Positions 1,098-17,864 of a stretch of 64,000 bases of DNA are shown here, one piece after another. How positions within the stretch are numbered: position 1 is the stretch's first letter; every line of letters starts with the position of its first letter. A program made the position numbers and the translations under genes. The notes under the pieces were generated by a model, which saw nothing but the letters and a program-made list of their open reading frames with translations, was not told where the DNA came from and did no database searches. Source of the stretch: an uncultured delta proteobacterium (lineage in GTDB: Bacteria; Desulfobacterota; Binatia; UBA9968). The stretch is taken from NCBI GenBank assembly GCA_963737905.1, contig CAVTUQ010000012.1, positions 140,303 to 204,302 of the forward strand, read 5' to 3'.

Positions 1098-3245
1098 TTA
1101 GCGAACTAACCCGAAGTCGATCTCGCTTCGGAAAGCGTTGATGCGGACGACTTTCACTCGCACGGCGTCGCCGAGGCGGAATTTTCGGCCGTGGCGGCTG
1201 CCTTTGATGACGTATTCCTTCTCGTAGTAGTGATAATCGTCGTCCGTTAGTGTAGAAACGCGCACGAGTCCCTCGACAAAATAGGCGTCTAGTTCCACAA
1301 AAAACCCGAAGTTGGCCAGGCTGGTAATGACGCCAGCGAACTCCTCGCCCAACTTGTCCATCATGAACTGGGCTTTCTTAAGATCCACCATTTCACGCTC
1401 GGCGTCCATGGCGTTTCTTTCACGTTGGGATGTGTGCTTGCCGGCTTCTTGCAAATATTTCTCAAGCTCGTCGCGCTCGCTGGGTTTCAACTTGTCGCCC
1501 TGAAGGGCTCGATCCAGCATGCGGTGCACCATCAAATCGGGGTAGCGCCGGATGGGCGAAGTAAAGTGCGTGTAACAGATCGAAGCTAAGCCGAAGTGGC
1601 CGATATTTTCCGGTTGATAGTGGGCCTGTTTCATCGCGCGAAGCAAAACATGATTGATCACTTTTTCCTCAGGCTTCCCGCGGCAAGCCTCAAGAAGCCT
1701 TTGAATCTCCGGCGGCGTGATGGGTTCTCGTTTCATAGGCAAGCGATAGCCCAGACTGAGAAGGAACGGTGCGATGGCTTCCAGAGCCTCGGCATCCGGA
1801 CCCTCATGGACGCGATAGAGCAACGGAAGGTCTTGCGCTTTGAGATGCCGGGCTACGGCCTCATTGGCGGCGATCATGAATTCTTCGATGATCCGGTGGG
1901 CAATGTTACGCTCGGCGCGCACGATATTCTCGGGCATCCCTTGAATGTCGAGGATGATTTCGGCCTCGGGGAGGTCAAAATCCAAGTTTCCTCGGGCTCT
2001 ACGATTTTCGTAAATCAGCAGTGCCAGCTCTTCCATCAGTTTGAACTGATCCCCAAGATTTCGATAACGCTCTAAACACGCGGAGTCTTTGTCCACTAAA
2101 ATCCGCCTGACGGCGGTATAGGTCATGCGTTCCTGGCTGCGAATCACTGAGTTGAAGAAGCGGCTGTGGACGACTTCGCCTTTGCTGTTGATTTCCATGG
2201 CCACGGTCTTGGTCAGCCGATCCTCATTGGGGTTCAAGCTGCAGATGCCATTGGAGAGAACCTCAGGAAGCATCGGGATGGCTCTATCCGGAAAATAGAC
2301 GCTCGTAGCTCGGCTGAAGGCCTCTTGATCGATGGCGGTTCCCGGTCGAACGTAGAAGGCAACGTCGGCGATACAGACGAAAAGCTCGTAGCGGCCGTTT
2401 GTTTTTCGCACGCAAACGGCGTCGTCAAAGTCCCTAGCTAGCTCGCCGTCAATGGTGACGATCGGTAAATTTCTGAGATCGGTTCGCGCGGCAATCTCGC
2501 CAGGGCTAATGGAGAACGAGGCGCTCGCAATTTGCCGGCGGACCGGTTCAGGAAAGCTCGTCGCGAGACCGTATCGGAAGACGATCGATTGAGCCTGAAC
2601 CTCCGGATCATCGGGATTCCCCATCACCTGCACGAGTTCTCCCTCGGGTCCCGACATGGCCGTCCCGTAGCGGGAAATTTCCGCAGCGACGACTTTTCCC
2701 TTTTCCGGCTTAGCCTTGGTTTGGCGCAGCGGAATGGCGGTGGCGATTCGCGGATCCATCGGAATCAGATAGCCCCTGCCATCAAATTCATCGTAGGTGC
2801 CGATGAGCCGTTTCTGCGCGTGCTCGAGAATTTGCACGACGTGAGCTTCTACGCCGCCCTGTTTCTTTCGATCGGCGCGTACCATGACCCGGTCTCCGTG
2901 CATCACACGGCGCATTTCGCGGCGATTGAGGTAAAGATCCTCCACACTCTTATCGTCGGGAATGAGAAAACCGAAGCCGTCCGGGTGGGCGTGGACTCGT
3001 CCAATGACCAGGTTCTGTGCGTCCGGCAGCGCGTAGTGATTTTTCTTCAAGCGAACGATTCGGCCTTCGCGTGCGAGTTCCCTCAAGGCGTCGACAATCT
3101 GCTGAAGTTCGGCGCGCCCAAATCCCCCGCGCTTCTGTATTTCGACGGGCGTCAACCGGGTTTTCGGTCTTTTGGCGAAGAGCTCCAGAATTCTCTTCTG
3201 CGTCCGTTCTGGAGCCAAAGCCGTGGGTGGAGAGTTAACCGTCAT
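1098..3245 (-). CDS. rnr: Ribonuclease R
   Basis: 715 aa; HPDGFGF cold-shock domain, RNB motifs TIDGELARDFDDA and HFTSPIRRYPD, C-terminal S1 domain. Confidence 0.96.
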   Translation of the reverse strand: MTVNSPPTALAPERTQKRILELFAKRPKTRLTPVEIQKRGGFGRAELQQIVDALRELAREGRIVRLKKNHYALPDAQNLVIGRVHAHPDGFGFLIPDDKSVEDLYLNRREMRRVMHGDRVMVRADRKKQGGVEAHVVQILEHAQKRLIGTYDEFDGRGYLIPMDPRIATAIPLRQTKAKPEKGKVVAAEISRYGTAMSGPEGELVQVMGNPDDPEVQAQSIVFRYGLATSFPEPVRRQIASASFSISPGEIAARTDLRNLPIVTIDGELARDFDDAVCVRKTNGRYELFVCIADVAFYVRPGTAIDQEAFSRATSVYFPDRAIPMLPEVLSNGICSLNPNEDRLTKTVAMEINSKGEVVHSRFFNSVIRSQERMTYTAVRRILVDKDSACLERYRNLGDQFKLMEELALLIYENRRARGNLDFDLPEAEIILDIQGMPENIVRAERNIAHRIIEEFMIAANEAVARHLKAQDLPLLYRVHEGPDAEALEAIAPFLLSLGYRLPMKREPITPPEIQRLLEACRGKPEEKVINHVLLRAMKQAHYQPENIGHFGLASICYTHFTSPIRRYPDLMVHRMLDRALQGDKLKPSERDELEKYLQEAGKHTSQRERNAMDAEREMVDLKKAQFMMDKLGEEFAGVITSLANFGFFVELDAYFVEGLVRVSTLTDDDYHYYEKEYVIKGSRHGRKFRLGDAVRVKVVRINAFRSEIDFGLVR

Positions 3246-3302
3246 GAAAGCGCCAAAAAGCTACTGGCTTGCTGCCGGTGGGTAAGCACGGGGTCACTGG
3301 AG

Positions 3303-3572
3303 CTACGAAGACTCCGCCGACAGCTCTGTCATGAGCCAGTCATCGCCCACGTTCTCCGGGCGTGGGATTTCCACGATCGGCACGTCGCGGCGGATCGAGT
3401 CCAGAATGCTCCGTGCCGTGTCTAAAAAATCACCCATGGCCAGAAGCACGATGATTGCTTTCTTGCGGTCGACCGTTCGGATAATTCCCACTTCTTCGTA
3501 GGACTCGAAAATAAACTTCACATAGGCGATGTGTTCAGGAAACGTTTCGAGATAGATTTCTCGTAATTCCAT
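3303..3572 (-). CDS. DUF4911-like small protein
   Basis: MELREIYLETFPEHIAYVKFIFESYEEVGIIRTVD...; start trimmed to ATG 3572 to avoid overlap with the AsmA gene. Confidence 0.75.
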   Translation of the reverse strand: MELREIYLETFPEHIAYVKFIFESYEEVGIIRTVDRKKAIIVLLAMGDFLDTARSILDSIRRDVPIVEIPRPENVGDDWLMTELSAESS

Positions 3573-3585
3573 AGCAACACAAGAA

Positions 3586-6255
3586 TCATTGCTTGAGCAA
3601 TTGTTCGAGCGACTCCGGAAGCCAATTTTTTCTTTCGTTCTTGTCGATGCCCTTGCCACCGGACTCGGGAGGTTCGCCGGCCTTTTGCGGAAAACTCCGG
3701 CGCAACACTTGGGCCACTGCACGGTTTTCCGGTCTCACCTGGACATTGGGGAATTTGCCGTCTGCGCGGAAAGAGATGGACAGTCTTCCGCGGCGATCGA
3801 GCAGATAGCGGAACAATTTATACTCGCGCTGGAGTTCTTGCGTGATGCGGGGCGAAAAAACCAGCAGCCCATTCCATTGCGTCGTCCTGTCAAACCCGAT
3901 CCAGCCTGCTCCGGTGATCGTGTAGTCGGGAGTCACGAGTAACAGATCATCGGTGCGAATCCGTTCTCCCTCAACCTTGAAGTTGGCCTTGAGGGTGTCA
4001 AAGGGCGTATACCCGCGATCCACTAAGGCCGCGAGGCTGGGCGGGAGGCGCGATGGCCCCTTGGACGGGGAGTCGCCGCCTCCTCCGGGGATAATCTTCG
4101 CAATCAAATTGAAATCTTTAATTGTGCCGTCATGAATGACGCTCTCGCCCGATCCTTGAAGGGTTTCCGTGACCGGCGCCCCGTTTCGCGTTACGGCGTC
4201 GAACTCAGCGCGAAAGTTCAGTTGTCCTTCGAGTCGATTTTTTAGCTGGGGAAATTTTTGTTTTAGAACGGATCCCACATCGATCGATTCAATTCGAGGC
4301 TTAAACATGAAGCGTTGTGGCGGCTCGGTGGCAGCGGGCCAATATCCGTCGGAGCGAACCACCCCGTCGAAAGCCTGGAACGAGAGATTTTTGAAACTCA
4401 TAGCCTTGGGCGACCACGTTACATCTCCATGCAGTTCCCGGTAAGGAATATCTTCCAGACTCCCTTCGGAAGAGGCAAGGGTTCCCTTGAGCGAAGGGGC
4501 GTCGTCCTGCCATTGAATTTCACCGATCGCGGTCACGTTCCTGATCCGGTTGGGTTTGCTAGCAGAAAAGGTGGGCAGATCCACCAGATTGATTTCCGGC
4601 GATCGTAATTGGTAACGTGCGCTTGGTTGGTTTATGTCTTTGATTTTGGCCACGACCGTAATAAGGGATGAACCCATACGAAAAGAACCATTTTCCAGGA
4701 GAGCTTCTTTTCCTAAAAACGAAATATCTGCTTTCAGACGGTCGATCTTTCTTCCGGTTTCCTTTTGCCTGAACTCGGCGTCGGCAAGACGCAGTTTCCC
4801 ATGAACATTCCAGTCTTCCGGCGACGCAAAGTTCTTTCGCAATACAATGTCCCAATGAATGGTTCCACCCACATCTTGAAACGTCAGCGGAGAAACCAGC
4901 CGCCACCACGTTGGCAAATCGCTTGAATCACTGCGCAGCCTAAGTTGCAGGCGAGGTTCCGGTCCCTCTTCGACAACGCCTGAAAGTGTCATTTTGGAAT
5001 CGCCAAGACTTAACTCGGAGTCGTGAAGAACGAGTCCATTTTTTTGCCGCGAGATCTGAGCTCTGAGTTCAGCCGGACTACCCGGAGGCTTGCGGAGCCA
5101 ATCCCGATAGCGAAATTCGCTCTTCTCCCCCTTGATCAAAACGCCCGCGCGCAAGTTACCCCAGGTTCCTTCGAACTGGCTATAGGCATTCACGGAACCT
5201 TCTGTCGCTAGGGCAACGGGCAAAATTTGTGTGAGAAAGGGTAAGTTACGAAGTTGCATCAGATTGATCGAGCTCAAGGTCAGCCTTCCTTTGAGTTGCG
5301 CTTCTGCCCAGGGATGGCCTTCCGGAACTTCCATGGAACCTTCCAAAATGGCGTTGTAGTTTGAAGAGCCGAACAAAGGGATCTTCAGGGCAACGTCTGT
5401 GATTCGAGGGTGGCTGAAAGTGCCTCCAAGTCTTGCCTGGAGCGACAGAGGACCGGTTACCTCCAACTCGCGGGGAATTCTGTCTCTAAGAAAAGGTAAG
5501 GCGCGGGCGAGCAGCATAGCGGACAGGGAGTCGAAGCGCATTTCAAGCTCCACGGGTTGCTGCGACCAGTCATGGGGTTGCCGAAGCGGGCCCAACTCTC
5601 CATCGATCCTGACATCGTGACCTAGCCCCTCGGTCACCGCCGCAGCGAATTTAATGCTGGTCCTTTGTGAAGGATTGAGTCCTTTGATTTCCATCTCTAC
5701 GTTTTTGACGCGAATCTCCGCGGGCTCCTTGACCGAGCGGTCGATGAAATCAACCCGACCGTTCTTTACATTTATTTTCGCCACTAAAAAATATACTGTT
5801 ACTAGCTTTCTTTCCGCTGAAGGCGTTTGTGATCTGGGCAAGGCTCTGGTTTCCTTCTTTTGGCCTGCCAACTCGGCCAGGTTCAACAGACCTCGCTCGT
5901 CCGTGATGATTTGGAATTCTGGCGCTTGGAAGGTCAATGAGTTGATGACAATTTTGCCGACCAATAGCGGCAGAAAGCTCACCCCCAGCCTTAATTCTTG
6001 TGCCCGGACGACTGGAGTCGCGGCAAAACGAGGATCGTCAGCAATGCGAAATTCCTTTGCAGAGAAGCCGAGCCCACCCCACAAGCTGGCCTCGAGGCGA
6101 TCGAAGGTGGCGTCCTTGCCTAGAAATCTCTGCAGTTCTTGATGCACCTGTTCACGGTTCTTGGCCGCCAGTGTGTTGAAGGTCTTAATGAAAGCAACTA
6201 TCGCCACTCCAGACGCAATCAGAAAAAACAACAGAAATTTGTGCGATTTTCTCAT
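3586..6255 (-). CDS. AsmA family protein
   Basis: 889 aa; N-terminal anchor, beta-rich body, AsmA-like C-terminus (TPFDTLKANFKVEGERIRTDDL...GAGWIGFD). Confidence 0.85.
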   Translation of the reverse strand: MRKSHKFLLFFLIASGVAIVAFIKTFNTLAAKNREQVHQELQRFLGKDATFDRLEASLWGGLGFSAKEFRIADDPRFAATPVVRAQELRLGVSFLPLLVGKIVINSLTFQAPEFQIITDERGLLNLAELAGQKKETRALPRSQTPSAERKLVTVYFLVAKINVKNGRVDFIDRSVKEPAEIRVKNVEMEIKGLNPSQRTSIKFAAAVTEGLGHDVRIDGELGPLRQPHDWSQQPVELEMRFDSLSAMLLARALPFLRDRIPRELEVTGPLSLQARLGGTFSHPRITDVALKIPLFGSSNYNAILEGSMEVPEGHPWAEAQLKGRLTLSSINLMQLRNLPFLTQILPVALATEGSVNAYSQFEGTWGNLRAGVLIKGEKSEFRYRDWLRKPPGSPAELRAQISRQKNGLVLHDSELSLGDSKMTLSGVVEEGPEPRLQLRLRSDSSDLPTWWRLVSPLTFQDVGGTIHWDIVLRKNFASPEDWNVHGKLRLADAEFRQKETGRKIDRLKADISFLGKEALLENGSFRMGSSLITVVAKIKDINQPSARYQLRSPEINLVDLPTFSASKPNRIRNVTAIGEIQWQDDAPSLKGTLASSEGSLEDIPYRELHGDVTWSPKAMSFKNLSFQAFDGVVRSDGYWPAATEPPQRFMFKPRIESIDVGSVLKQKFPQLKNRLEGQLNFRAEFDAVTRNGAPVTETLQGSGESVIHDGTIKDFNLIAKIIPGGGGDSPSKGPSRLPPSLAALVDRGYTPFDTLKANFKVEGERIRTDDLLLVTPDYTITGAGWIGFDRTTQWNGLLVFSPRITQELQREYKLFRYLLDRRGRLSISFRADGKFPNVQVRPENRAVAQVLRRSFPQKAGEPPESGGKGIDKNERKNWLPESLEQLLKQ

Positions 6256-6423
6256 GTGGCTGGTTCGTGCGAGCCCGACATCCTGTTTTTCGGAACTACC
6301 CGATTGAAGAAGTATTTCGACGGTGAAGTGGGATCAACAGCATCGATCAGGGTTGCTCATATCCCTGATTCTCAGAACAGCGGAACACGGGGACCCGGTG
6401 GTCTTTGCTTCGGAAATTGTTGC

Positions 6424-7626
6424 TTAATGGATGCTTTCGACAACGGTGGCGATGCCTTGCCCCACGCCGATGCACATGGTCGCGAGGCCATAACGGCTGC
6501 CGCGCTTTTTCATTTCGTGAATGAGTGTTGTCATGATCCTTGCGCCGCTGCAGCCGAGGGGATGGCCGAGAGCAATCGCCCCGCCGTTAACGTTCAATTT
6601 CTTAGGATCGATCCCAAGCTCCCGCGTGCAAGCAATCACCTGGGAAGCAAAAGCCTCGTTCAATTCGACCAGATCGATCTGTTCCATGGTCAAACCGGCT
6701 CTTTTCAGCGCTTTCTGCGTGGCGGGAATCGGTCCAATACCCATGTAATTTGGATGAACCCCGGCGGCAGCCGATGCCACGATTCGAACCACGGGCCTCA
6801 GTTTGAGTTGCTCGGCCTTTTGCGGCGTGGTCAGCAAAAGGGCCGCCGCGCCATCGGAAAGAGGAGAGGAGTTTCCAGCCGTGACCGTCCCCCCTTTTTT
6901 GAAAGCGGGTTGCAGCGCTGCGAGCTTTTCCAAAGATGTGTCGGCCCTGGGTCCTTCGTCTTTGCCGTAGACCAGGGGCGAGCCCTTTCTTTGGGCCATT
7001 TCGAAGGGAACCAGCTCATCCTTGAGGCGCCCTTCTTCGTGGGCCTTGAGGGCTTTTAGGTGACTTCCCAAGGCGAACTCATCCTGTTCTCGCCGGTCGA
7101 TCTGATATTTTTCTGCGACGTTCTCTGCGGTCTCGCCGTTATTGATCAGGGAGTAGAGTTCTGCCATACGGCGGTTGGGAAAGCGCCAACCCAGCGAGCT
7201 GTCGTACAACGTTACGTCGCCACGCTGGAAGGCGTTCGACGGCTTGGCCATCACCCAGGGTCCGCGGGTCATGCTCTCGACACCGCCGGCGACAAAAAGG
7301 TCGCCGTGGTCGGTTTGGATGGCTCGTCCAGCCTGATTGATCGCCTCCAATCCGGACCCGCACAAACGATTTACGGTGGCGCCTGGGATCGTATAGGGCA
7401 GCCCTGCGAGAAGCGACGCGTTGCGCGCGACGTTGCGGGAATCCTCGCCCGCTTGGTTTGTACAGCCGAAGTAGACGTCTTCGATTTCATCTTTGTTGAT
7501 TCCGGTCTTGTCGATCAATTTAGCGATGATATAGGCGCCCAGGTCGTCGGTTCGAACGTCTTTCAAAATTCCACCGTGGCGGCCCATGGGCGTGCGCACG
7601 GCTTCAACGATGACGGCTTCTTTCAT
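6424..7626 (-). CDS. Thiolase (PaaJ/PcaF-like 3-oxoacyl-CoA thiolase)
   Basis: NRLCGSG, NEAFA, GGAIALGHPLGCSG, MCIGVGQG motifs; NQAGEDSRNVAR typical of PcaF/PaaJ. Confidence 0.93.
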   Translation of the reverse strand: MKEAVIVEAVRTPMGRHGGILKDVRTDDLGAYIIAKLIDKTGINKDEIEDVYFGCTNQAGEDSRNVARNASLLAGLPYTIPGATVNRLCGSGLEAINQAGRAIQTDHGDLFVAGGVESMTRGPWVMAKPSNAFQRGDVTLYDSSLGWRFPNRRMAELYSLINNGETAENVAEKYQIDRREQDEFALGSHLKALKAHEEGRLKDELVPFEMAQRKGSPLVYGKDEGPRADTSLEKLAALQPAFKKGGTVTAGNSSPLSDGAAALLLTTPQKAEQLKLRPVVRIVASAAAGVHPNYMGIGPIPATQKALKRAGLTMEQIDLVELNEAFASQVIACTRELGIDPKKLNVNGGAIALGHPLGCSGARIMTTLIHEMKKRGSRYGLATMCIGVGQGIATVVESIH

Positions 7627-8369
7627 GGCTTCACCTGACCTTCGTTATAGGAATAAAAACCTTTGCCGCGAGTCTCGCCGAGAAATCCCGCGATGACCAA
7701 TTTCTTCAGCAGGGGCGCCGGCCGGTAACGATCTTCTCCCGTTTCACGCTGCAGACCTTCGAGGACCGCCAGGACTTCATCCAAACCTATCTGATCCGCC
7801 CAGCGAAGTGGACCGTTGGGATAATTCACACCGAGCCGCATAGCGACGTCGATCTCCTCCGCGGTGGCGACTCCTTCTTCTAGACTCCTCGCCGCTTCAT
7901 TGATGATCAAACTTAGAATGCGCGGGAAAGTCAACCCCGGTGTATCTTTGACACGAACGGTCTCCTTGCCGATGGATTTGAAGATTCGCTCGGCGCTTTG
8001 AATCGCGCTCTCCGCGGTTCGCATGCCCGCCGCCAACTCAATGACTTTTCGGTCCTTGAACGGGGAGAAAGTCGCAAAACCCACGATGCGTTCAGGTTTC
8101 GTCGTCCACGAAGCCATCAGGGTAGTTGCAAAACCAAGGCAAGAAGTGATGATCACGGCCGGGGCAGGCATCGCCAAATCGAGCCGTTGAAGAATCGATT
8201 TTTTCTTCTCAATAGGACTCGAACTTGTCTCAATGACCACGGGTGTCGTCGGAGTAAGCTCAGCCAGATCCGAAAGCAGGACCGCGTCCTGCCCCGCTCC
8301 GCGACTGAGTTCGAGCAGCTCTTGACACAAACGGCTTTCGCCGATAATGGCGAGACTATTTTTTGTCAT
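7623..8369 (-). CDS. 3-hydroxyacyl-CoA dehydrogenase family protein resembling the C-terminal half of PaaH
   Basis: Degenerate NAD domain, then [36 protein letters not shown]; start placed at MTKNSLAII (8369). Confidence 0.8.
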
Positions 8370-9222
8370 AGACGTAAAAACCCCGACCCGTTTTCCTTCC
8401 GAGATTTCCACCCATGACCATTTTGTACTGAATGGGGCTTGGGCGAAACCTCGGATCTTCAAAAAAAGATCGGTAGAGCGACTCCGTCGCCGCAAAGTTG
8501 ACGTCGTGCCCGATCAAATCCATCAACTCAAAAGGACCCATGCGGAAATTACCCGCCAGTCTCATGATGCGATCAATGGTTTCAACCGTGGCATCCCCGT
8601 CACCCAATATCCGCAGCGCCTCGTTATAGAAGGGACGGGCAACGCGGTTAACGATAAAACCTGGAGTGTCTTTGGCGCGGGCTGGGGTTTTGCCCATCTG
8701 GCGGATTAGGTCAGCTGCCTTGTCGATCGCTTCTGAGGCTGTGCGGTCGCCCTGAACGACCTCCACCAATGCCATCAGCGGCGGAGGATTGAAGAAGTGC
8801 AGACCTAGAACTCTTTCCGGATTTTGAGTGTTCGCCGCGATGGCCGTAACGGAAAAAGAAGACGTGTTCGTGGCCAGCAAGGTCTCCCGGCCGCATATTC
8901 CGTCCAGTTGCTTGAAAACATCACGCTTGAGCTCTAATTTTTCGGGGACCGCCTCGATGACTAGACTGCTTCCTTCGAAGTTTTCGAGTTTGGTTGTGCC
9001 GTGAAGCCGGTCAAGAATTTGTTTTTCCTGATCCGCCGCGATTTTCCCTCGCTCGCGGCTTCCCTGAAGGAAACTACGAATACGTTCTAAGCCTTTGTCG
9101 ATAAATTCTTGAGAGATATCATAGAGTAAAGTTTCAAAGCCCGCTTGCGCGGCCACCTGGGCGATGCCCGCGCCCATGGTGCCGGCTCCCAGGACGCCGA
9201 TTTTTTCAAGTTTATCGCTCAT
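8356..9222 (-). CDS. 3-hydroxyacyl-CoA dehydrogenase (PaaH N-terminal-half type)
   Basis: [42 protein letters not shown]. Confidence 0.93.
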
Positions 9223-9233
9223 GCTCGTCGAGT

Positions 9234-10017
9234 CTATTTCCCCGTGAATATCGGCGCGCGTTTCTCCAAAAATGCGCGCACTCCCTCGTCATAGTCAGTG
9301 CTTCTTCCGGCGATCTCTTGCAAATGGGACTCGTATTCCAGGTCGGCCTCAAGACCTGGTAGAATCGCGTGGTTCAACGCTCGCTTGATAAGACCTACGC
9401 CGCGGGGCGCGCAAGCGACTCTTGCCCCAATTTCCTTGGTCGCCTTGACAAATTCTCCTGCCGGGAAAACCTTAGCGACGAGTCCGATACGCTGGGCCTC
9501 GCGCGCATCTACCGTCTCGCCGAGAAGGAGCAGCTCCATGGCTTTGCTCAGGCCCACGAGGCGCGGCAAGATAAAACTACCGCCCGAGTCCGGCGCCAAT
9601 CCGACGCGCACAAAGGACTGTATAAATTTCGCTTCTTCCGAAGCGACCCGCAAATCACAGGCCAGAGCCAAATTACAACCTGCGCCGGCGGCGACGCCGT
9701 TGACGGCGGCGATGACGATCTTTTCCATCTGCCGGATCTGCCGGATCATCGGGTTGTACTTCTCGCGCAACGAAGCGCCGAGGGAACCTTTCTGATCCGG
9801 CGTCCGGCCCTTGAGATCTTGTCCGGCGCAAAAGGCCCGTCCTGCGCCGGTGATGACGAAGCAACGGACTTCTTTATCGCGGTCCCCTTCTTTCAATACA
9901 TCTAGCACTTCCTTGTTCATTTGTGGAACAAAGGCGTTGAGGGCTTGCGGGCGATTGAGCGTAATGGTAGCGACGCCGCCTTCTTTCTTTCGTAAAGGAT
10001 CGGTTTCGTAGTGCCAC
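9234..10017 (-). CDS. Enoyl-CoA hydratase/isomerase, PaaG-like; 5' end disturbed by indels
   Basis: [26 protein letters not shown]. Upstream of 9920 the frame continues [18 protein letters not shown]; the start (GTG 10017, V-A-Y-E-T-I-L-Y-E) needs small indel corrections. Confidence 0.85.
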
Positions 10018-12332: not shown

Positions 12333-13061
12333 ATGTCTCTCGAGGCCATTGAGCAAAAGAAAGACCTCATCGAAAGTCGGGCTCGCATACGCGAGTTCGT
12401 TTTCGGCATTCAAGACGGTTTGATGAGCACCGTGGGGCTGCTGACCGGAGTCCAGGGTGCCACCGAAAGCACTGCAGTTGTCATTATCACGGGCTTCACG
12501 GCGATGTTTTCGGGGGCGATTTCCATGGCGGCCGGATCTTACCTTTCATCGAGCGCGGAGAAAGATATCTTCGACAAGGAACTGCGCGATGCCGAAGTGC
12601 TGGCGGAAAGGGAACCCTATTTGGCTGCCGAGGGATTGCTGAAGGCTTTGAATCAGGAAGGTTTGGCGCGGGAGCAGAGTTATAACGTCGTCAAGGTTCT
12701 CTTGCGCCAGCAGCACGCATTTCTAAGGACTTTTCAGGAAAAAGTCTTCGGCCTCGGATCGGCGGAAATTAACCGGCCTCTCCAAGGGGCTTTGGTCATG
12801 GCAGCTTCGTTCGTGATCGGCGCTTCCGTGCCGATCGTGCCTTATCTGCTGGTCGCAGGCCGAACCGCTTTGATTCTTTCGATTGTGCTCTCGGGTTTCG
12901 TCCTCTTTGGGGTGGGGTTCGTCAAAGGCCGCTTGGCGGCGAAGTCGCCGGCGCGGTCCGGCGCCCAGTTCTTCGCGATTGCCGTGGGCGCTGCGCTCCT
13001 GGGATATCTGATCGGCTTGGTCGTCCAACATTTCTTTCCTGACATTTCGATTCCGGCGTGA
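12333..13061 (+). CDS. VIT1/CCC1 family iron/manganese transporter
   Basis: REFVFGIQDGL, GAISMAAGSYLS, SFVIGASVPIVPY. Confidence 0.92.
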   Translation: MSLEAIEQKKDLIESRARIREFVFGIQDGLMSTVGLLTGVQGATESTAVVIITGFTAMFSGAISMAAGSYLSSSAEKDIFDKELRDAEVLAEREPYLAAEGLLKALNQEGLAREQSYNVVKVLLRQQHAFLRTFQEKVFGLGSAEINRPLQGALVMAASFVIGASVPIVPYLLVAGRTALILSIVLSGFVLFGVGFVKGRLAAKSPARSGAQFFAIAVGAALLGYLIGLVVQHFFPDISIPA

Positions 13062-13082
13062 CGGCGACTGGTTTTTTTCCTC

Positions 13083-13292
13083 TTAGTCGATCAGACTTCT
13101 AAGCAACGTTAGATTTTCCCGATCCTCGGCTAGGTCCGGCCCTTTAGGCGTTTCGAGGCACATGGGGAGACCCCAGAAGCGTTTGTCGTTCACGAGAAAC
13201 CGGAACGCGTCGACGCCGATGTGGCCTTTCCCGATGTGCTCATGACGGTCTACGCGAGAATTGAACTCCTTCTTCGAATCGTTCAGATGGAA
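13083..13292 (-). pseudogene. nfo: Duplicated 3' end of nfo (about 69 codons, diverged allele)
   Basis: FHLNDSKKEFNSRVDRHEHIGKGHIGVDAFRFLVNDKRFWGLPMCLETPKGPDLAEDRENLTLLRSLID* aligns with the C-terminus of the intact gene at 16889-17764. Confidence 0.93.
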
Positions 13293-13341
13293 CCCACAAA
13301 GCGTTCGATCCTGACAAAACGGGCTCACGATAGGGGGAACA

Positions 13342-16173
13342 ATGGTTGTCACCCAAGAACTTTTCGCTGCATACCTGAACTGCCCGACAAAGGCATATCT
13401 CATGAGCTCAGCAATCCCAACGGAGCAGACTAAATTCAGGAGGTGGAAAGCGGATATTCAAAATAGGCTACGACAACAAGGAGTAGAGTTACTTCGAAAA
13501 CAAAGCCGCCTCGAAATCAAAGAAAGTCCTACGGCAGACGATCTTTCAGCGAAAGAGTCTGCTCTTTACGTAAATTGCTCTATTGGATTTGAAGAGCTGA
13601 GATCGGTGATTGACGCTGTTGAAAAAATAGACTTACCAGGCAGAAAGAGTCAATTGCTTCCCTGTCGATGTCAATTAGACAAACGCGCGGAGAGACATGA
13701 AAAGCTCCTATTGGCTTATGATGCCCTATGTCTACAAGCCTTCACAGGAGTACCTATCCGTGCGGGCAAGTTGGTCGACGGGATTAGTAAACGTGCAAAG
13801 AAAGTTCAACTAAATAGCCAGCTCAAAGCGGTGCAGGACCATGTTCGACGACTGACAGAGCTGCTTGGACAAGCAAAGGAACCGCCGCTGATCCTGAACA
13901 GACATTGCGTCGAATGTGAATTCCGAGCGCGGTGTCGTGAGAAGGCTGCGGAGACGGACGATTTGAGCCTCCTTTCCAAAATGAGCCTTAAAGAGCGACA
14001 AAAGTTACAAGGCAAAGGAATCTTCACAGTCCAGCAACTTTCCTACACGTTTAGGCCAAGGAGACGACGCAAAAGCCCCCGTTCAAATGCAGACAATTTC
14101 TCCTATGCCCTAAGAGCACTGGCGATTCGAGAAAATAAAATCCATGTCGCCGGAACGCCCACTTTTACGATTCAAGGCGATGACTGCTTTTTGGACGTGG
14201 AGGGCATTCCCGATTATGGATTCTATTATCTCGCCGGGCTACGGTTTCGTCTCAACGGCCAGCCAATCCAACATTCATTTTGGGCGGGCGACCGTTGCGA
14301 CGAGGAAACTATGTGGAACGACCTAGTCACGAACTTACGTGCGAGTGGGTTTCGCCGAATTATTCATTTCGGAAACTTCGAAAAGGAGTTTCTGATAGCC
14401 ATGACCAAGCGTTATTGTAAGTCAAAGGAACAATCGGAATATGTTGAAAGTTTGGTCCAGCAGACGGTTAACCTTTTGTCGGTAATCTACAGCCGAATCT
14501 ATTTTCCGACGTCTTCGAATAGCCTAAAAGATATTGCTCGCTACCTGGGACACAGATGGCCGGATGAAATTGGAAGCGGCTATGAAGCATTGCTCGCCCG
14601 TCATTACTGGGAAGCCTCAAGAGAGCTGAGCGTCAAGGAAGCCCTCCTGAGTTATAACATCAGCGATTGCGAAGCTCTCCATTTGGTTGCGGACTGCGTC
14701 TCTAAAATGTGTGGTCAATTATCAACCGCGGGACCGAATGACGATTCTAAATTTGTCGATACCAATAAATTGAGGGGATGGGGACCGTTCAAGTTTGGAC
14801 AGCTGAATTGTGCGATACCAGACTTTGAATACATCAATCGCGCCTCTTACTGGGACTATCAGCGCGAGCGAATCGTTTTTCGGTCGCGACGCTTACGCAA
14901 GCGGATTCGTATGCACACCTCTAGTAGACGGATAAAATACCGGGCAAATAAGGCAATCGCTCATCGACGAACTATTGCTTGTCCCTACTGTAAGTCGCGA
15001 GAGATTTATAAGTGGGGACCGAGAAATAAGACGGTCTATGATCTCAAGTTTTCTCCAGCCGGCGTAAAGCGTTGGGTCGTAAATTATCAATTTGATCGGC
15101 ACAAATGCTGGCAATGCAGGAAAACTTTTATGCCTCCAAGGAAACCTTGGACGCGAAGCAAATACGGAGATGGTTTGATACGATACTTAGTTTTTCTCAC
15201 GGTTGACCTGCAAATTTCACAAAGAGCCGCAAAAAAGTTAATAAATCAGTTCTTTGGTTTGGACCTATCAGGGGAATCTGCCGGGAGGTTTAAAAAGACT
15301 GCCGCCGCCTTTTATAAAGTAACTTACAACAAAATATTGCAAAATATAGTCAAGAGTCCCTTGGCCCATGTTGATGAAACGAAGGTTAGTCTCAATGGTC
15401 GAAGTGCTTATGTCTGGGTCTTAGCGAATCACGAAGATGTAGCTTACTTTGTTTCAGAGAGCCGCGAGGGCGCAAAGGTTCAAGATATCCTGAATAAATT
15501 CAAGGGTATCTTGGTTTCTGACTTTTACAGTCTTTACGACTCTTTCGAATGTCCACAGCAAAAATGCCTCATTCACTTGCTGCGGGATTTAAACGATGAT
15601 CTCTTGCGTGAACCATTCAATGAAGAACTTAAGTCGGTAGTCAACGGTTTTGCGTCTTTGGTTAAACCGATCGTTGAAACCGTGGATCGATATGGACTCA
15701 AGTGTCGTTTCATGAAAAAACACAAACGGTCAGTGGGCAGGTTTTACCGTTGGCTGACAAGGACCAATTTTGAGACGGAAGTGGGCGTCGGCTATAAAAA
15801 ACGATTTGAGAAAAATAGACAGAAACTTTTTACTTTCTTGGAATACGATGATGTCCCATGGAACAACAACGCGGCGGAGCATGCCATTAAAGCCTTCGCG
15901 ACGCTCCGACGCGTGTTTGGAGGTAGTAGCACGGAACGTGGCATCCAAGATTATCTTGTTCTGCTCAGCGTGTGTGAGACATGTCGTTATCGAGGAATAA
16001 AGTTTTGGGACTTTTTGTGTTCTGGTTACAAAGACGTGGACGCCTATGTCAAAAGTCAACGGCTTCATAGACGCCGGGTTACCAAGACAAGTATGCTGAA
16101 ATCCAGAAACGCAATTATCTCGCAAAGCGATGGCAATGTATGCCAAGTTGGGGAGGCTTCTGAGCAGTATTAG
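13342..16173 (+). CDS. TM0106-like RecB/Cas4-like domain + DEDD (RNase H-like) exonuclease + zinc ribbon + IS66 DDE transposase fusion (943 aa)
   Basis: YLNCPTK...HCVECEFRARC (four Cys); FLDVEG/SLKDIARYLG/YNISDC; CPYC...CWQC; HVDET, LVSDFYSLY, QKCLIHLLRD, WNNNAAEHAIK; visibly lower GC than the flanks. Confidence 0.88.
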   Translation: MVVTQELFAAYLNCPTKAYLMSSAIPTEQTKFRRWKADIQNRLRQQGVELLRKQSRLEIKESPTADDLSAKESALYVNCSIGFEELRSVIDAVEKIDLPGRKSQLLPCRCQLDKRAERHEKLLLAYDALCLQAFTGVPIRAGKLVDGISKRAKKVQLNSQLKAVQDHVRRLTELLGQAKEPPLILNRHCVECEFRARCREKAAETDDLSLLSKMSLKERQKLQGKGIFTVQQLSYTFRPRRRRKSPRSNADNFSYALRALAIRENKIHVAGTPTFTIQGDDCFLDVEGIPDYGFYYLAGLRFRLNGQPIQHSFWAGDRCDEETMWNDLVTNLRASGFRRIIHFGNFEKEFLIAMTKRYCKSKEQSEYVESLVQQTVNLLSVIYSRIYFPTSSNSLKDIARYLGHRWPDEIGSGYEALLARHYWEASRELSVKEALLSYNISDCEALHLVADCVSKMCGQLSTAGPNDDSKFVDTNKLRGWGPFKFGQLNCAIPDFEYINRASYWDYQRERIVFRSRRLRKRIRMHTSSRRIKYRANKAIAHRRTIACPYCKSREIYKWGPRNKTVYDLKFSPAGVKRWVVNYQFDRHKCWQCRKTFMPPRKPWTRSKYGDGLIRYLVFLTVDLQISQRAAKKLINQFFGLDLSGESAGRFKKTAAAFYKVTYNKILQNIVKSPLAHVDETKVSLNGRSAYVWVLANHEDVAYFVSESREGAKVQDILNKFKGILVSDFYSLYDSFECPQQKCLIHLLRDLNDDLLREPFNEELKSVVNGFASLVKPIVETVDRYGLKCRFMKKHKRSVGRFYRWLTRTNFETEVGVGYKKRFEKNRQKLFTFLEYDDVPWNNNAAEHAIKAFATLRRVFGGSSTERGIQDYLVLLSVCETCRYRGIKFWDFLCSGYKDVDAYVKSQRLHRRRVTKTSMLKSRNAIISQSDGNVCQVGEASEQY

Positions 16174-16233
16174 GATTCCCGATCTTCCGCCGGACCATGC
16201 GCTGTTTCGAGGCGCATCCCGATGCCGATGTGG
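16154..16233 (-). repeat. Second, eroded copy of the nfo 3' end
   Basis: aggcttctgagcagtattagga-ttcccgatcttccgc, gtttcgaggcgcat and gatgccgatgtgg match, in order, agacttctaagcaacgttagattttcccgatcctcggc, gtttcgaggcacat and gacgccgatgtgg of the 13083 copy. Confidence 0.8.
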
Positions 16234-16292
16234 TGATGGAAAGCTGCTTCTGGTATGCTTTTGCTGCTGACGAGAGGGCGAAAAGTCTGTTT

Positions 16293-16520
16293 ATGAATAT
16301 GCCTAGCCATGAAGAATTATATGATCGCTTCGTAAAAGGCCTGGAGTCTAAACACAGAGGAGCCTTTGCTGCCGTTCGCCCGGACGGAAAAGTTATTGTT
16401 GACAAGGACGATGTCAAAGTCGTGGACCGAGCGCTTAAGCAATTTGGCCCCGGTAATTTCGTGTTGTTAAAGGTTGGCAGTAGGGGAGTGGGGAAATGGC
16501 GCAGTCAACGACGGTTGTGA
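16293..16520 (+). CDS. Small DUF5678-like protein
   Basis: MNMPSHEELYDRFVKGLESKHRGAFAAVRPDGKVIVDKDD...FVLLKVG; the ORF-track N-terminus overlaps the eroded nfo copy, so the start is moved to 16293. Confidence 0.65.
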   Translation: MNMPSHEELYDRFVKGLESKHRGAFAAVRPDGKVIVDKDDVKVVDRALKQFGPGNFVLLKVGSRGVGKWRSQRRL

Positions 16521-16861
16521 CGCCCGCATATCCGTATGTCGAGGTCGAGTTTGCCGTCGGCGCTTTTCGTTCTTCAACCGTTCTCGCCTATGTCGATACA
16601 GGCTTTGACGGTTATCTGATTATTCCCAATACACAAACATCGCTTCTTGGTCCGCCACAATTCTTTGCGCCCTGGGAGCTTGGAGATGGGTCGGTCGTGC
16701 AGGCGCAGGAATACCGCGGTGATATCCTGATCTCCGGATTGAGCATAAGCATTCCCGCCCGCATTACACTAATAGGGGAAGAATACCTGTTGGGTCGTGG
16801 CGTTGTAGACCACGTGCGTATGACGTTTGATCATGGCCAGCGGCTGTTGTTGGAAGCGTGA
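16496..16861 (+). CDS. Clan AA (retropepsin-like) aspartic protease
   Basis: AYVDTGFDG catalytic motif, LGDG flap, LLGR motif; 121 aa. Confidence 0.85.
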   Translation: MAQSTTVVTPAYPYVEVEFAVGAFRSSTVLAYVDTGFDGYLIIPNTQTSLLGPPQFFAPWELGDGSVVQAQEYRGDILISGLSISIPARITLIGEEYLLGRGVVDHVRMTFDHGQRLLLEA

Positions 16862-16888
16862 AGCCCCTCCCCTTGGCTCACTGTTTCT

Positions 16889-17764
16889 CTAGTCCTGAAT
16901 CAGGCTCCTCAGCAGCGTTAAGTTTTCTTTATCTTCTTTCAGGTCCGGGCCCTTCGGCGTCTCCAAGCACATGGGTAATCCCCAAAAGCGCTGGTCGTTA
17001 AGCAGTAGACGGAAGGCTTCGACACCGATGTGGCCTTTCCCGATGTGCTCATGACGGTCTACGCGAGAATTAAATTCCTTCTTTGAGTCATTCAAATGAA
17101 AAGCCGCTAGGCGGTCAATGCCGATCTCTTCATCGAAATCCGTGAACGTTCGCTCGTAACCTTCCTTTGTCCGAATGTCATACCCTGCGGCGAAGGCATG
17201 CTCGGTGTCGAAGCAGACTCTGAGCCGATCGCTTTCTTTGGTTGCGTCAAACATTCTAGCGATCTGTTCGAAGCGGTAGCCGAGATTGGAGCCCTGGCCG
17301 GCCGTGATCTCGAGTGTGACCTTCACATTATAGCCGGGGCAGGCCTTGTGGACCTCGTCCAGTGAATGAGCAATGGTCTTTATACCTTCGTCTTCGCCGG
17401 CGCCCACGTGGGAGCCAGGATGAGCGATCAAATTCGACACGCCCAGGATTTCGCACCGTTCCAACTCGTCGATGAAGGCGGCTACCGAACGCTTTCGCAA
17501 AGAACCATCGGGCGAACCCAAATTGAGCAGATAGGAATCATGGGCAATCACGGTGGTGATTCCGGTGGCTTTCCGATTCAAATCAAACAGCTCGATTTCT
17601 TCCTTTGTGCAAGGCTTGGCCGCCCATTGGCGCGACGACTTCGTGAAGATCTGAATCGCGTCGCAATCTACAGTCTTACCCAGGAGCAGGGATTTATCGA
17701 CGCCTCCCGCGATGGACATATGGGCGCCCAGGAGCGGGCGGGGCGGTTTCTCTTTCTGTTTCAT
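16889..17764 (-). CDS. nfo: Endonuclease IV (AP endonuclease 2)
   Basis: GAHMSIAGG, HDSYLLNL, HPGS, LEITAGQG, DTEH, HLNDSK, DRHEHIG, LETP; start at MKQKEK because the upstream extension is a tandem repeat. Confidence 0.96.
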   Translation of the reverse strand: MKQKEKPPRPLLGAHMSIAGGVDKSLLLGKTVDCDAIQIFTKSSRQWAAKPCTKEEIELFDLNRKATGITTVIAHDSYLLNLGSPDGSLRKRSVAAFIDELERCEILGVSNLIAHPGSHVGAGEDEGIKTIAHSLDEVHKACPGYNVKVTLEITAGQGSNLGYRFEQIARMFDATKESDRLRVCFDTEHAFAAGYDIRTKEGYERTFTDFDEEIGIDRLAAFHLNDSKKEFNSRVDRHEHIGKGHIGVEAFRLLLNDQRFWGLPMCLETPKGPDLKEDKENLTLLRSLIQD

Positions 17765-17770
17765 AACATT

Positions 17771-17864
17771 TTGAACGTCTTGAACTTTTTGAACGGTTTG
17801 AACCATTGCTATATTCCGCCCGCGTTCAAACCGTTTAAGCCGTTCAAAGCGTTCAAGTCGTTCA
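17771..17864. repeat. Inverted 9-nt tandem repeat (TTGAACnnn)4 ... (GTTCAAnnn)4-5
   Basis: ttgaacgtc-ttgaacttt-ttgaacggt-ttgaac ... gttcaaacc-gtttaagcc-gttcaaagc-gttcaagtc-gttca. Confidence 0.85.

Follow-up and report, generated by a model that had tools for sequence, protein, structure and literature searches.

A recurrent fusion of a TM0106-type nuclease module with an IS66-type transposase, probably a single-gene mobile unit, at the nfo locus of a Binatia genome

What kind of gene joins the parts of a nuclease and of an insertion-sequence transposase in a single reading frame, and how did it come to lie among truncated tails of nfo, a gene of the endonuclease IV family? The question is raised by a stretch of 64,000 nt (the window, WIN in comparisons) from contig CAVTUQ010000012.1 of an uncultured Binatia bacterium, whose own assembly, G000, is 87.5% complete; genomes compared with it carry G numbers, and loci or contigs L numbers. 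The presence of a fused Cas4-like/exonuclease/IS66 gene in the window, encoding a protein that we call P0001, is confirmed, and we regard it as on balance probable that P0001 represents a large uncharacterised family of low-copy, single-gene mobile units that derive from IS66 and lack inverted repeats. The gene, an open reading frame (ORF), and its domains, one of which resembles a helix-hairpin-helix (HhH), are laid out as follows.

13342..16173, + strand: P0001 fusion protein, 943 aa (uninterrupted ORF, no internal stop)
13342..13956, + strand: Cas4/RecB-like domain, residues 1-205, with Cys C14/C189/C192/C198 and a degenerate PD-(D/E)xK site (profile and fold matches)
13957..14181, + strand: HhH-looking linker, residues 206-280 (conservation; HhH read by eye, low model confidence)
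14182..14721, + strand: PolB-type DEDDy 3'-5' exonuclease domain (PF13482), residues 281-460 (Pfam, conserved residues)
14950..15120, + strand: four-Cys zinc ribbon, residues 537-593 (conserved Cys; weak matches to IS1/IS256 zinc domains)
15229..15948, + strand: IS66-type DDE catalytic domain, residues 630-869, with D678, D727 and E846 (Pfam, NCBIfam, fold)

From its N-terminus, P0001 comprises a TM0106/COG2251-type module (Cas4-like four-cysteine domain, HhH-like linker, PolB-type DEDDy exonuclease), followed by the zinc ribbon and the IS66-type DDE domain. Pfam matches were obtained for Cas_Cas4 at residues 87-198 (9e-7), RNase_H_2/PF13482 at residues 282-451 (3e-12) and DDE_Tnp_IS66 at residues 630-869 (1e-30). 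Two NCBIfam models were matched above their cut-offs: TIGR03491 (TM0106 family RecB-like putative nuclease) over residues 4-451, with 175 bits against 97.45, and NF033517 (IS66 family transposase) over residues 537-893, with 186 bits against 180. A first-pass annotation, made from the letters alone, had described a single polypeptide with Cas4-like, DEDD exonuclease and IS66 domains; the ORF and these matches bear it out, and all the motifs that it quoted are present. The per-domain profile search and structure prediction that it recommended agree, the folds being those of Cas4 and of the ISCth4 and Hermes transposases. The AlphaFold2 model, built on a 108-row alignment, has a mean predicted local distance difference test score (pLDDT) of 79 and a predicted template modelling score of 0.47, with domains mostly at 85-93 and low confidence at residues 208-251 (pLDDT <50), 478-530 and 911-943. 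Run against the PDB with Foldseek, it gave as top match the ISCth4 (IS256-family) transposase (E 8.6e-8), with the Hermes transposase at 2e-3, Cas4 of Cas4-Cas1-Cas2 complexes at 5e-6 to 5e-5 and Dna2 at 1e-4. Weaker matches to PolB-family polymerases (E 0.09-0.15, probability 0.95-0.99) we take as falling on the exonuclease part of these enzymes, the aligned ranges not being displayed.

Conservation was read from an alignment of 108 family members. Invariant columns are C14, C189 and C192 of the Cas4-like cysteines (CxxCxxxxxC), D285 and E287 (LDVEG) with Y438, N439 and D442 (YNxxD) of the exonuclease, C547, C550 and C589 of the zinc ribbon, and D678 and E679 (VDET), D727 (SDF) and E846 (AEH) of the DDE domain; C198, E347, C592 and H676, respectively, are kept in at least 90% of members. 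It follows that the family has kept its iron-sulphur cysteines, DEDDy site, zinc ribbon and DDE triad, and the first reading of the IS66 DDE set as intact holds for all the members aligned. The best-conserved stretch of the family is residues 206-280, with invariant L210, L211, G226, S234, R240, R241, A259-A261 and R263; read by eye, a similar linker stretch is also present in the canonical TM0106 protein of L017, a relative. The PD-(D/E)xK site, by contrast, is degenerate family-wide, as had been suspected for P0001: in a profile alignment (E 0.03) the E-x-K of Cas4 (8d3l) stands opposite R109-x-(V/Q), and position 78 of P0001 is N in place of D, whereas the L017 protein retains D...DxK...QxxxY in a by-eye comparison. 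As far as residues can tell, P0001 apparently combines a complete TM0106/COG2251 module, its PD-(D/E)xK site dead and its DEDDy exonuclease active, with an intact IS66-type DDE domain.

All domains of P0001 are under purifying selection, the ratio of non-synonymous to synonymous differences per site (pN/pS) being 0.14-0.53 across every domain in six pairwise comparisons. At residues 901-943 it rises to 0.37-1.0, compared with 0.17-0.21 for the transposase part, and the C-terminal tails, which cannot be aligned across the family, evolve almost neutrally. In comparisons of WIN 13342-16170 with L121 and L128, synonymous divergence differed 2- to 3-fold between the N-terminal and transposase halves, and the direction of this imbalance was opposite in different pairs, which suggests recombination within the gene.

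The fusion is not peculiar to this contig. When a large protein collection was searched and 8000 candidates were scored, at least 1771 proteins matched at the threshold of E <= 1e-3; PF03050 and PF13482 occur together in 119 of the 120 best database proteins, mostly of 900-970 aa. A scan of one genome per species matched at least 599 stretches, at least 563 of them encoding relatives, and the 80 loci retained come from Binatia, Acidobacteriota, Planctomycetota, Verrucomicrobiota, Alpha-, Beta-, Gamma- and 'Delta'-proteobacteria, Nitrospirota, Bacteroidota, KSB1 and Hydrogenedentota. Across these many phyla the distribution is patchy and low-copy. None of 40 relatives of G000 gave a match over both modules, a match at E <= 1e-100 came from only 2 of 61 genomes of one Acidobacteria family, and full-length members are carried by 2 of 72,556 plasmids, which extend the range to Cyanobacteria (Acaryochloris and Calothrix) and label the genes 'TM0106 family RecB-like putative nuclease' and 'transposase IS66, putative'. 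Candidate carriers among named cultures are Acaryochloris marina MBIC10699 (plasmid pREC4), Methylobacter svalbardensis LS7T4A, Microvirga tunisiensis Lmie10 and Candidatus Solibacter usitatus Ellin6076. G000 has one copy of the gene; up to 4-5 diverged paralogs per genome occur in Microvirga and three in a Shewanella metagenome-assembled genome (MAG), none of them near-identical, and paralogs inside G044 and G077 reach at most 76% DNA identity. The contigs that bear members often measure just 3-4 kb, a usual length where repeats are involved. At 4 of 68 loci another member of the family stands no more than 3 kb away, and L081 carries two distinct fused-family genes in tandem (4001-7030 and 7485-9695), 455 bp apart.

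Is the gene then an insertion sequence of the ordinary kind? IS66 elements are marked by inverted repeats typically starting GTAA and by an 8-bp target duplication; the ISBst12 subgroup of IS66 is not known to carry tnpA or tnpB. Inverted-repeat seeds of 9-10 nt gave nothing consistent in 77 loci. A scan of these loci for canonical IS66 ends, defined as no fewer than 9 repeat matches out of 14 together with an 8-bp duplication, gave five weak matches, none starting GTAA, and one in the reversed-flank control; the same scan recovered all four fetched copies (4/4) of its positive control, a 1444-bp single-ORF IS66-like element of G078. These four copies (L114-L117) do not differ from one another and show GTAACTGTTCAGA repeats, with 13 of 14 repeat matches, as well as 8-bp duplications; the element stands at no fewer than 13 places with identical match scores in a genome that also has two fused genes. 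The missing GTAA...TTAC ends reported for P0001 are thus missing across the loci scanned. The absence of the accessory genes, claimed in the same first pass, is upheld for tnpB, whose family TnpB_IS66 (PF05717) is found in none of six genomes that hold fused genes (G000 and five others); for tnpA, which was not searched by family, it extends to the scanned neighbours (VIT, DUF885, nfo and two small ORFs), which gave no transposase match. The relatives gathered as it had proposed show neither IS66 repeats with 8-bp duplications (77 loci) nor TnpB (the six genomes).

Taken together, it is most improbable that P0001 is an ordinary IS66/ISBst12-type insertion sequence with overlooked ends, or an assembly or annotation artefact that joined two genes. 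Names speak for the former: some members carry the NCBI name 'IS66 family transposase', and the main-text table of a 2012 survey lists four 'transposase IS66' genes of Candidatus Solibacter usitatus with pfam03050 and COG2251, handled there as ordinary IS66 (PMC3469429). Against it, the positive control was found every time and GTAA-type ends never, and against the artefact, the fusion recurs in hundreds of independent assemblies as one continuous conserved alignment. A Solibacter genome with four such genes was not found among the 61 Acidobacteria genomes searched. The passages concerned of PMC3985635 treat COG2251/PF13482, which is joined there to a DUF83 domain, as a presumed 3'-5' exonuclease that is uncharacterised and of unknown role. 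Beyond these remarks and the table row of PMC3469429, the fusion is not described in the full-text literature searched, which does not cover subscription journals.

The neighbourhood bears on a further proposal of the first-pass annotation, a defence protein, taken here as one that acts against phages or plasmids and happens to consist of transposase and nuclease domains. Toxin-antitoxin-like cassettes do lie nearby in the window, in L028 and on the Acaryochloris plasmid, and Cas4-like and exonuclease domains would suit such a role. Nevertheless, the most frequent cluster of neighbouring ORFs is found at only 4 of 68 loci and consists of further fused-family genes, so that there is no conserved partner gene; PADLOC and PHROGs match only Cas4 and transposase, the PADLOC matches being confined to the Cas4 domain; the Cas4-like catalytic site is degenerate; and full-length members are as rare on plasmids as stated above (phage records were not searched). 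We consider a defence function very unlikely.

If not an ordinary insertion sequence, what moves? The extent of the unit can be read from similar copies in different surroundings.

13326..16122, + strand: core unit common to WIN and L120, from the leader (CACGA...) before the ATG to codon 927 (BLAST, leader comparison)
16123..16173, + strand: read-through C-terminal tail, codons 928-943, beyond the common unit and ending within nfo tail #3 (WIN-L120 comparison, pN/pS)

WIN 13334-16122 is 93.2% identical over 2790 nt (BLAST) to positions 1486-4275 of metagenome contig L120, with unrelated flanks on both sides; L120 has no nfo, VIT or flanking repeats. Since this identity stops at 16122, the last 17 codons of P0001 lie outside the unit and run into flanking DNA. 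Other sets behave in the same way: in L089 and L107 (93% DNA identity) the common stretch begins about 11 bp ahead of the ATG and ends about 30 bp beyond the stop, and in L057, L061 and L063 (88-89%), which span different orders, it begins 0-10 bp ahead of the ATG and ends just past a conserved ...DIDAF motif, the flanks being unrelated in both sets. The moving unit, essentially a bare ORF, starts about 10-20 bp ahead of the ATG and stops at about codon 905-927. A 93%-identical copy in an unrelated context, together with copies 89-93% identical in differing contexts, indicates recent movement.

Two side observations concern the flanks of such units. In Microvirga tunisiensis the same 333-bp sequence (99% identical; L152 1-333 and L153 1-333) follows each of two paralogs that are themselves only about 66% alike in DNA, which suggests an insertion adjoining a repeated target. 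An insertion of about 195 bp, with 5-bp CACGA repeats at its sides, separates the nfo tail from the start codon of the fused gene in L122 (about 140-340), L121, L123 and L147; it is absent from WIN and L134 and is probably a miniature element.

How the gene came to lie among nfo tails can be followed at the locus itself. From left to right the window holds VIT (12333-13061), nfo tail #1, an 11-nt spacer, P0001, about 20 nt, tail #3, an ORF pair and the intact nfo.

13083..13314, - strand: nfo tail #1, 5'-truncated at about codon 225, the last ~80 codons plus stop, beside VIT (Pfam AP_endonuc_2)
16143..16217 (about), - strand: nfo tail #3, a decayed remnant with a frameshift and a 7-nt deletion (repeat families; right junction also in G001)
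16293..16861, + strand: DUF5678-like small ORF (16293-16520) and clan-AA aspartic-protease-like ORF (16496-16861), a separate cassette (matches below cut-off)
16889..17806, - strand: intact nfo (endonuclease IV family), its 3' end the recombination target (Pfam AP_endonuc_2 2e-54)

The gene is wedged between nfo tails, as first noted, although there are three of these and not two, the third being the tail of the intact gene (16889-17125). Tail #1 is 79% identical over 203 nt to 16899-17101, and at most 80% identical to the tails of sampled relatives (rows for G006 and G012 left out). Against the resident tail it shows 47 differences in 210 nt and yet only 8 in 70 residues (random expectation 31, minimum 23 in 2000 trials), with pS 0.74 and pN 0.079. 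So few amino-acid differences despite the nucleotide divergence indicate that tail #1 evolved within a working nfo of another lineage and did not arise by duplication in place.

All 41 of the 41 genomes searched have nfo, and in this lineage its 3' end is a hot spot for small cassettes (window 16143-17806; L028 56-568), which lie between the intact gene and a 5'-truncated remnant. In L028, a Candidatus Binatia MAG (69% protein identity) and the closest genome locus among the matches listed, the order is remnant, fused gene, intact nfo, with repeats of 115 bp at 90%. Among metagenome relatives of at least 80% identity, 12 of 14 lie at the VIT-nfo locus, in three arrangements: that of the window; ORF pair, tail and gene (L134); and the gene directly beside nfo (L126-L128). 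The junction between truncated tail and leader is identical in WIN, L134 and L122. The tail of L134 is a mosaic, with the stop-proximal ~60 nt 96-100% resident-type and the last ~60 nt, beside the gene, 90-95% like tail #1. These arrangements are the products expected of single crossovers between an element-linked nfo fragment and the host tail, products that host RecA alone could make. The DUF5678-like/protease pair occurs also in G001 and in metagenome loci, and the junction from remnant to cassette is identical in G001 and the window.

Further features of the locus may be listed here. nfo-tail scars with other cassettes are seen in G001 (L026 3670-4422, the DUF5678-like/protease pair) and in G003 (L027 2135-3032, VapBC). 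In L026 the stretch from VIT to the nfo remnant holds about 390 bp of palindrome-rich sequence (3279-3669) for which the window has no equivalent. At the start of nfo, 17765-17864 is an array of 9-bp units (TTGAAC + 3 nt), partly palindromic; soil contigs pile up there to a depth of up to 83, with many loose ends, which points to an array common to many organisms.

Are such repeats general in the family? With flanks of 2 kb compared by blastn (E <= 1e-4), direct repeats of 30-620 bp were found at 17 of 68 testable loci (16 of 67 distinct) and inverted repeats at two; 300 random intervals of 2.78 kb, all from G000, gave 18 and 2, respectively. The enrichment of direct repeats (16/67 against 18/300) has a Fisher p of 4e-5, or 3e-4 without the two nfo loci. 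An excess of direct over inverted repeats was rejected as a test, since the random intervals share this bias; the frequency is still higher at family loci. At L072 the repeat is the tail of a convergent gene, and L055 is a 3549-bp contig with identical 44-bp ends that carries the fused gene and a tRNA-Glu. Targeting of tRNA genes was discarded, as tRNAs lie near a few loci (L055, L062, L064 and L085) without a general pattern; at L094 tRNA-like halves were seen by eye.

Taking into consideration these repeats, a specific version of the mobile-unit reading is that the unit captures a piece of its target, here the nfo 3' end, carries it along, and integrates by recombination or annealing of this piece with the host copy after the exonuclease and Cas4-like domains have prepared the ends, which would leave long imperfect direct repeats. 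In WIN and L028 the truncated tail is always on the ATG side and the tail end with the stop codon on the 3' side; L072 duplicates the tail of its convergent gene; the L134 tail is a mosaic; tail #1 evolved within a working nfo elsewhere; L055 has its identical ends around gene and tRNA-Glu; and flanking direct repeats are enriched. On the other hand, L120 has neither nfo fragment nor direct repeats at 93% identity to the window, 51 of 67 loci have no repeats, the L094 repeat lies outside the region common with the 87%-identical L100, identical contig ends can be an assembly effect, and RecA could yield the same products unaided. We regard such homology-guided integration as a tentative reading, and somewhat unlikely.

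The wider reading of P0001 as a mobile unit has to be set against several observations that weigh against it. No transposition product, circle junction or exact pair of empty and filled sites was seen, and soil contigs gave no back-join or circle junction. Short target duplications at the unit ends, sought at 11 loci, were only chance-sized words, and a promoter scan of the window found nothing above chance ahead of P0001 and none in the unit. Direct repeats are absent from both complete plasmid loci as well as from the 51 loci just mentioned, and the control for their frequency was drawn from one genome only, in which direct repeats also outnumber inverted ones by chance. Cassettes that have no transposase (VapBC; the DUF5678-like/protease pair) occupy this nfo hot spot too, each beside a tail remnant of the same kind, so tail-mediated shuffling needs no P0001. 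Identical multi-copy sets, as active insertion sequences give, are absent, and in this clade the gene has kept its locus while the protein diverged by about 30%; persistence at one locus without identical copies also fits a domesticated or passively transferred gene.

A search for empty sites among relatives of G041 returned dispersed repeats only. Three joints in soil contigs are weak: 13054 to 16190, which may be a form that lacks tail #1 and P0001, with a shorter side of 33 letters; 13293 to 17130, separated by 27 other letters and with a shorter side of 27 letters, which may be an intact nfo whose end is of the tail-#1 type; and 12751 to 16932, with a 20-letter side. Contigs from an RNA library cover parts of the ORF at 97.6-100% identity, a hint of transcription at most as this library may hold DNA.

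These points make domestication a serious rival: an exapted transposase-nuclease that serves the cell in DNA-end processing, repair or hot-spot recombination and spreads passively, without mobilising itself. The single copy in G000, the locus shared by relatives of 69-92% identity, the purifying selection seen in every domain, the lack of inverted repeats, target duplications and an internal promoter, and the transposase-free cassettes all fit. What fits badly is the patchy spread, the near-identical copies in unrelated contexts and, for L057/L061/L063, across different orders, the several diverged paralogs of some genomes, the many repeat-sized contigs, and a read-through tail without fixed flanks, odd for a housekeeping gene. 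We judge domestication, serious as it is, unlikely. Of what the first-pass annotation had offered, the domesticated enzyme is favoured by the single copy and its long stay at one locus and disfavoured by the recent movement; the defence protein finds no support; and the 'new IS66 subgroup' fits best, with the amendment that the ends which define IS66 are lacking. The collection of homologs that it had called for, searched for ends, duplications and neighbours, yielded no IS66 ends and no recurrent neighbour.

If P0001 does form a mobile unit, its DDE domain would break and join DNA, the N-terminal module may bind and trim DNA ends, captured target homology might help integration, and the chemistry would depart from canonical IS66 transposition. 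In this clade the unit has probably been moved among nfo-tail copies by recombination between repeats, by Campbell-type excision and integration or by double-strand break repair, using the element-linked nfo fragment; either the P0001 protein or host recombination may drive these exchanges. That all this amounts to a new pathway, in which an IS66-derived DDE enzyme that has lost inverted-repeat recognition mobilises its own bare gene with captured target homology through a fused 3'-5' exonuclease and an iron-sulphur domain for end binding, and integrates by annealing or recombination with the host copy, we think quite unlikely. Were it true, site-specific integrative elements would have an equivalent based on a DDE enzyme, one that might drive hot spots like the nfo 3' end.

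The family deserves attention under either outcome. IS66 is among the least understood large insertion-sequence families, and this branch, in hundreds of species of at least eight phyla, breaks its structural rules, with no inverted repeats, 8-bp duplication or helper genes and with low copy number. A self-mobile unit would mean an undescribed route of DDE transposition and give the orphan TM0106/COG2251 nucleases a first functional context; a domesticated one would be a widespread case of the joint recruitment of a transposase and an exonuclease. Current labels ('IS66 family transposase', 'TM0106 family nuclease') hide the fused family, and the nfo-tail hot spot offers a clean natural system for the hopping of small cassettes via gene-tail repeats.

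Among known systems, P0001 resembles the TnpC of IS66, including ISBst12-like elements, in its zinc ribbon and in a DDE_Tnp_IS66 domain with intact D-D-E, and resembles the ISBst12 type also in that genomes of the fused family have no TnpB (tnpA was not searched). It differs from TnpC by 460 extra N-terminal residues that form the nuclease/exonuclease module, and from IS66 elements by having no GTAA-type inverted repeats or 8-bp duplication. The fused unit is about 2.8 kb long, the plain IS66-like control of G078 1.44 kb; fused genes are low-copy (two in G078) where the plain element gives at least 13 identical-score matches; and unfused IS66 relatives are just 22-28% identical on the transposase part. 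With TM0106/COG2251 (TIGR03491; DUF83/Cas4-like plus PF13482) P0001 shares a full-length match above cut-off and the same domain order. The canonical L017 protein, however, keeps D...DxK...QxxxY, as judged by eye, and is fused to a helicase, and the P0001 family has R109 and a non-lysine residue in place of (D/E)xK and is fused to a transposase. Cas4 of CRISPR adaptation is alike in fold and cysteine cluster, but P0001 scores 29 bits against a cut-off of 65 for the cas4 model TIGR00372, the catalytic residues are missing, and no neighbour of any kind recurs in 68 loci (cas genes and CRISPR arrays were not searched as such), so that the analogy with CRISPR adaptation drawn in the first pass extends to the domain names only. 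Integrative elements that use gene 3' ends produce direct repeats of the target 3' end; such repeats are seen in WIN, L028 and L072 and not at most other loci. To the islands that tyrosine recombinases insert at the 3' ends of genes and tRNAs, the locus is similar in having a 5'-truncated copy of the target on one side and the intact gene on the other, with repeats that have diverged as expected of an element-borne copy. Unlike those islands, the cassette of one ORF has no tyrosine or serine recombinase, and its sole recombinase-like protein is the DDE enzyme.

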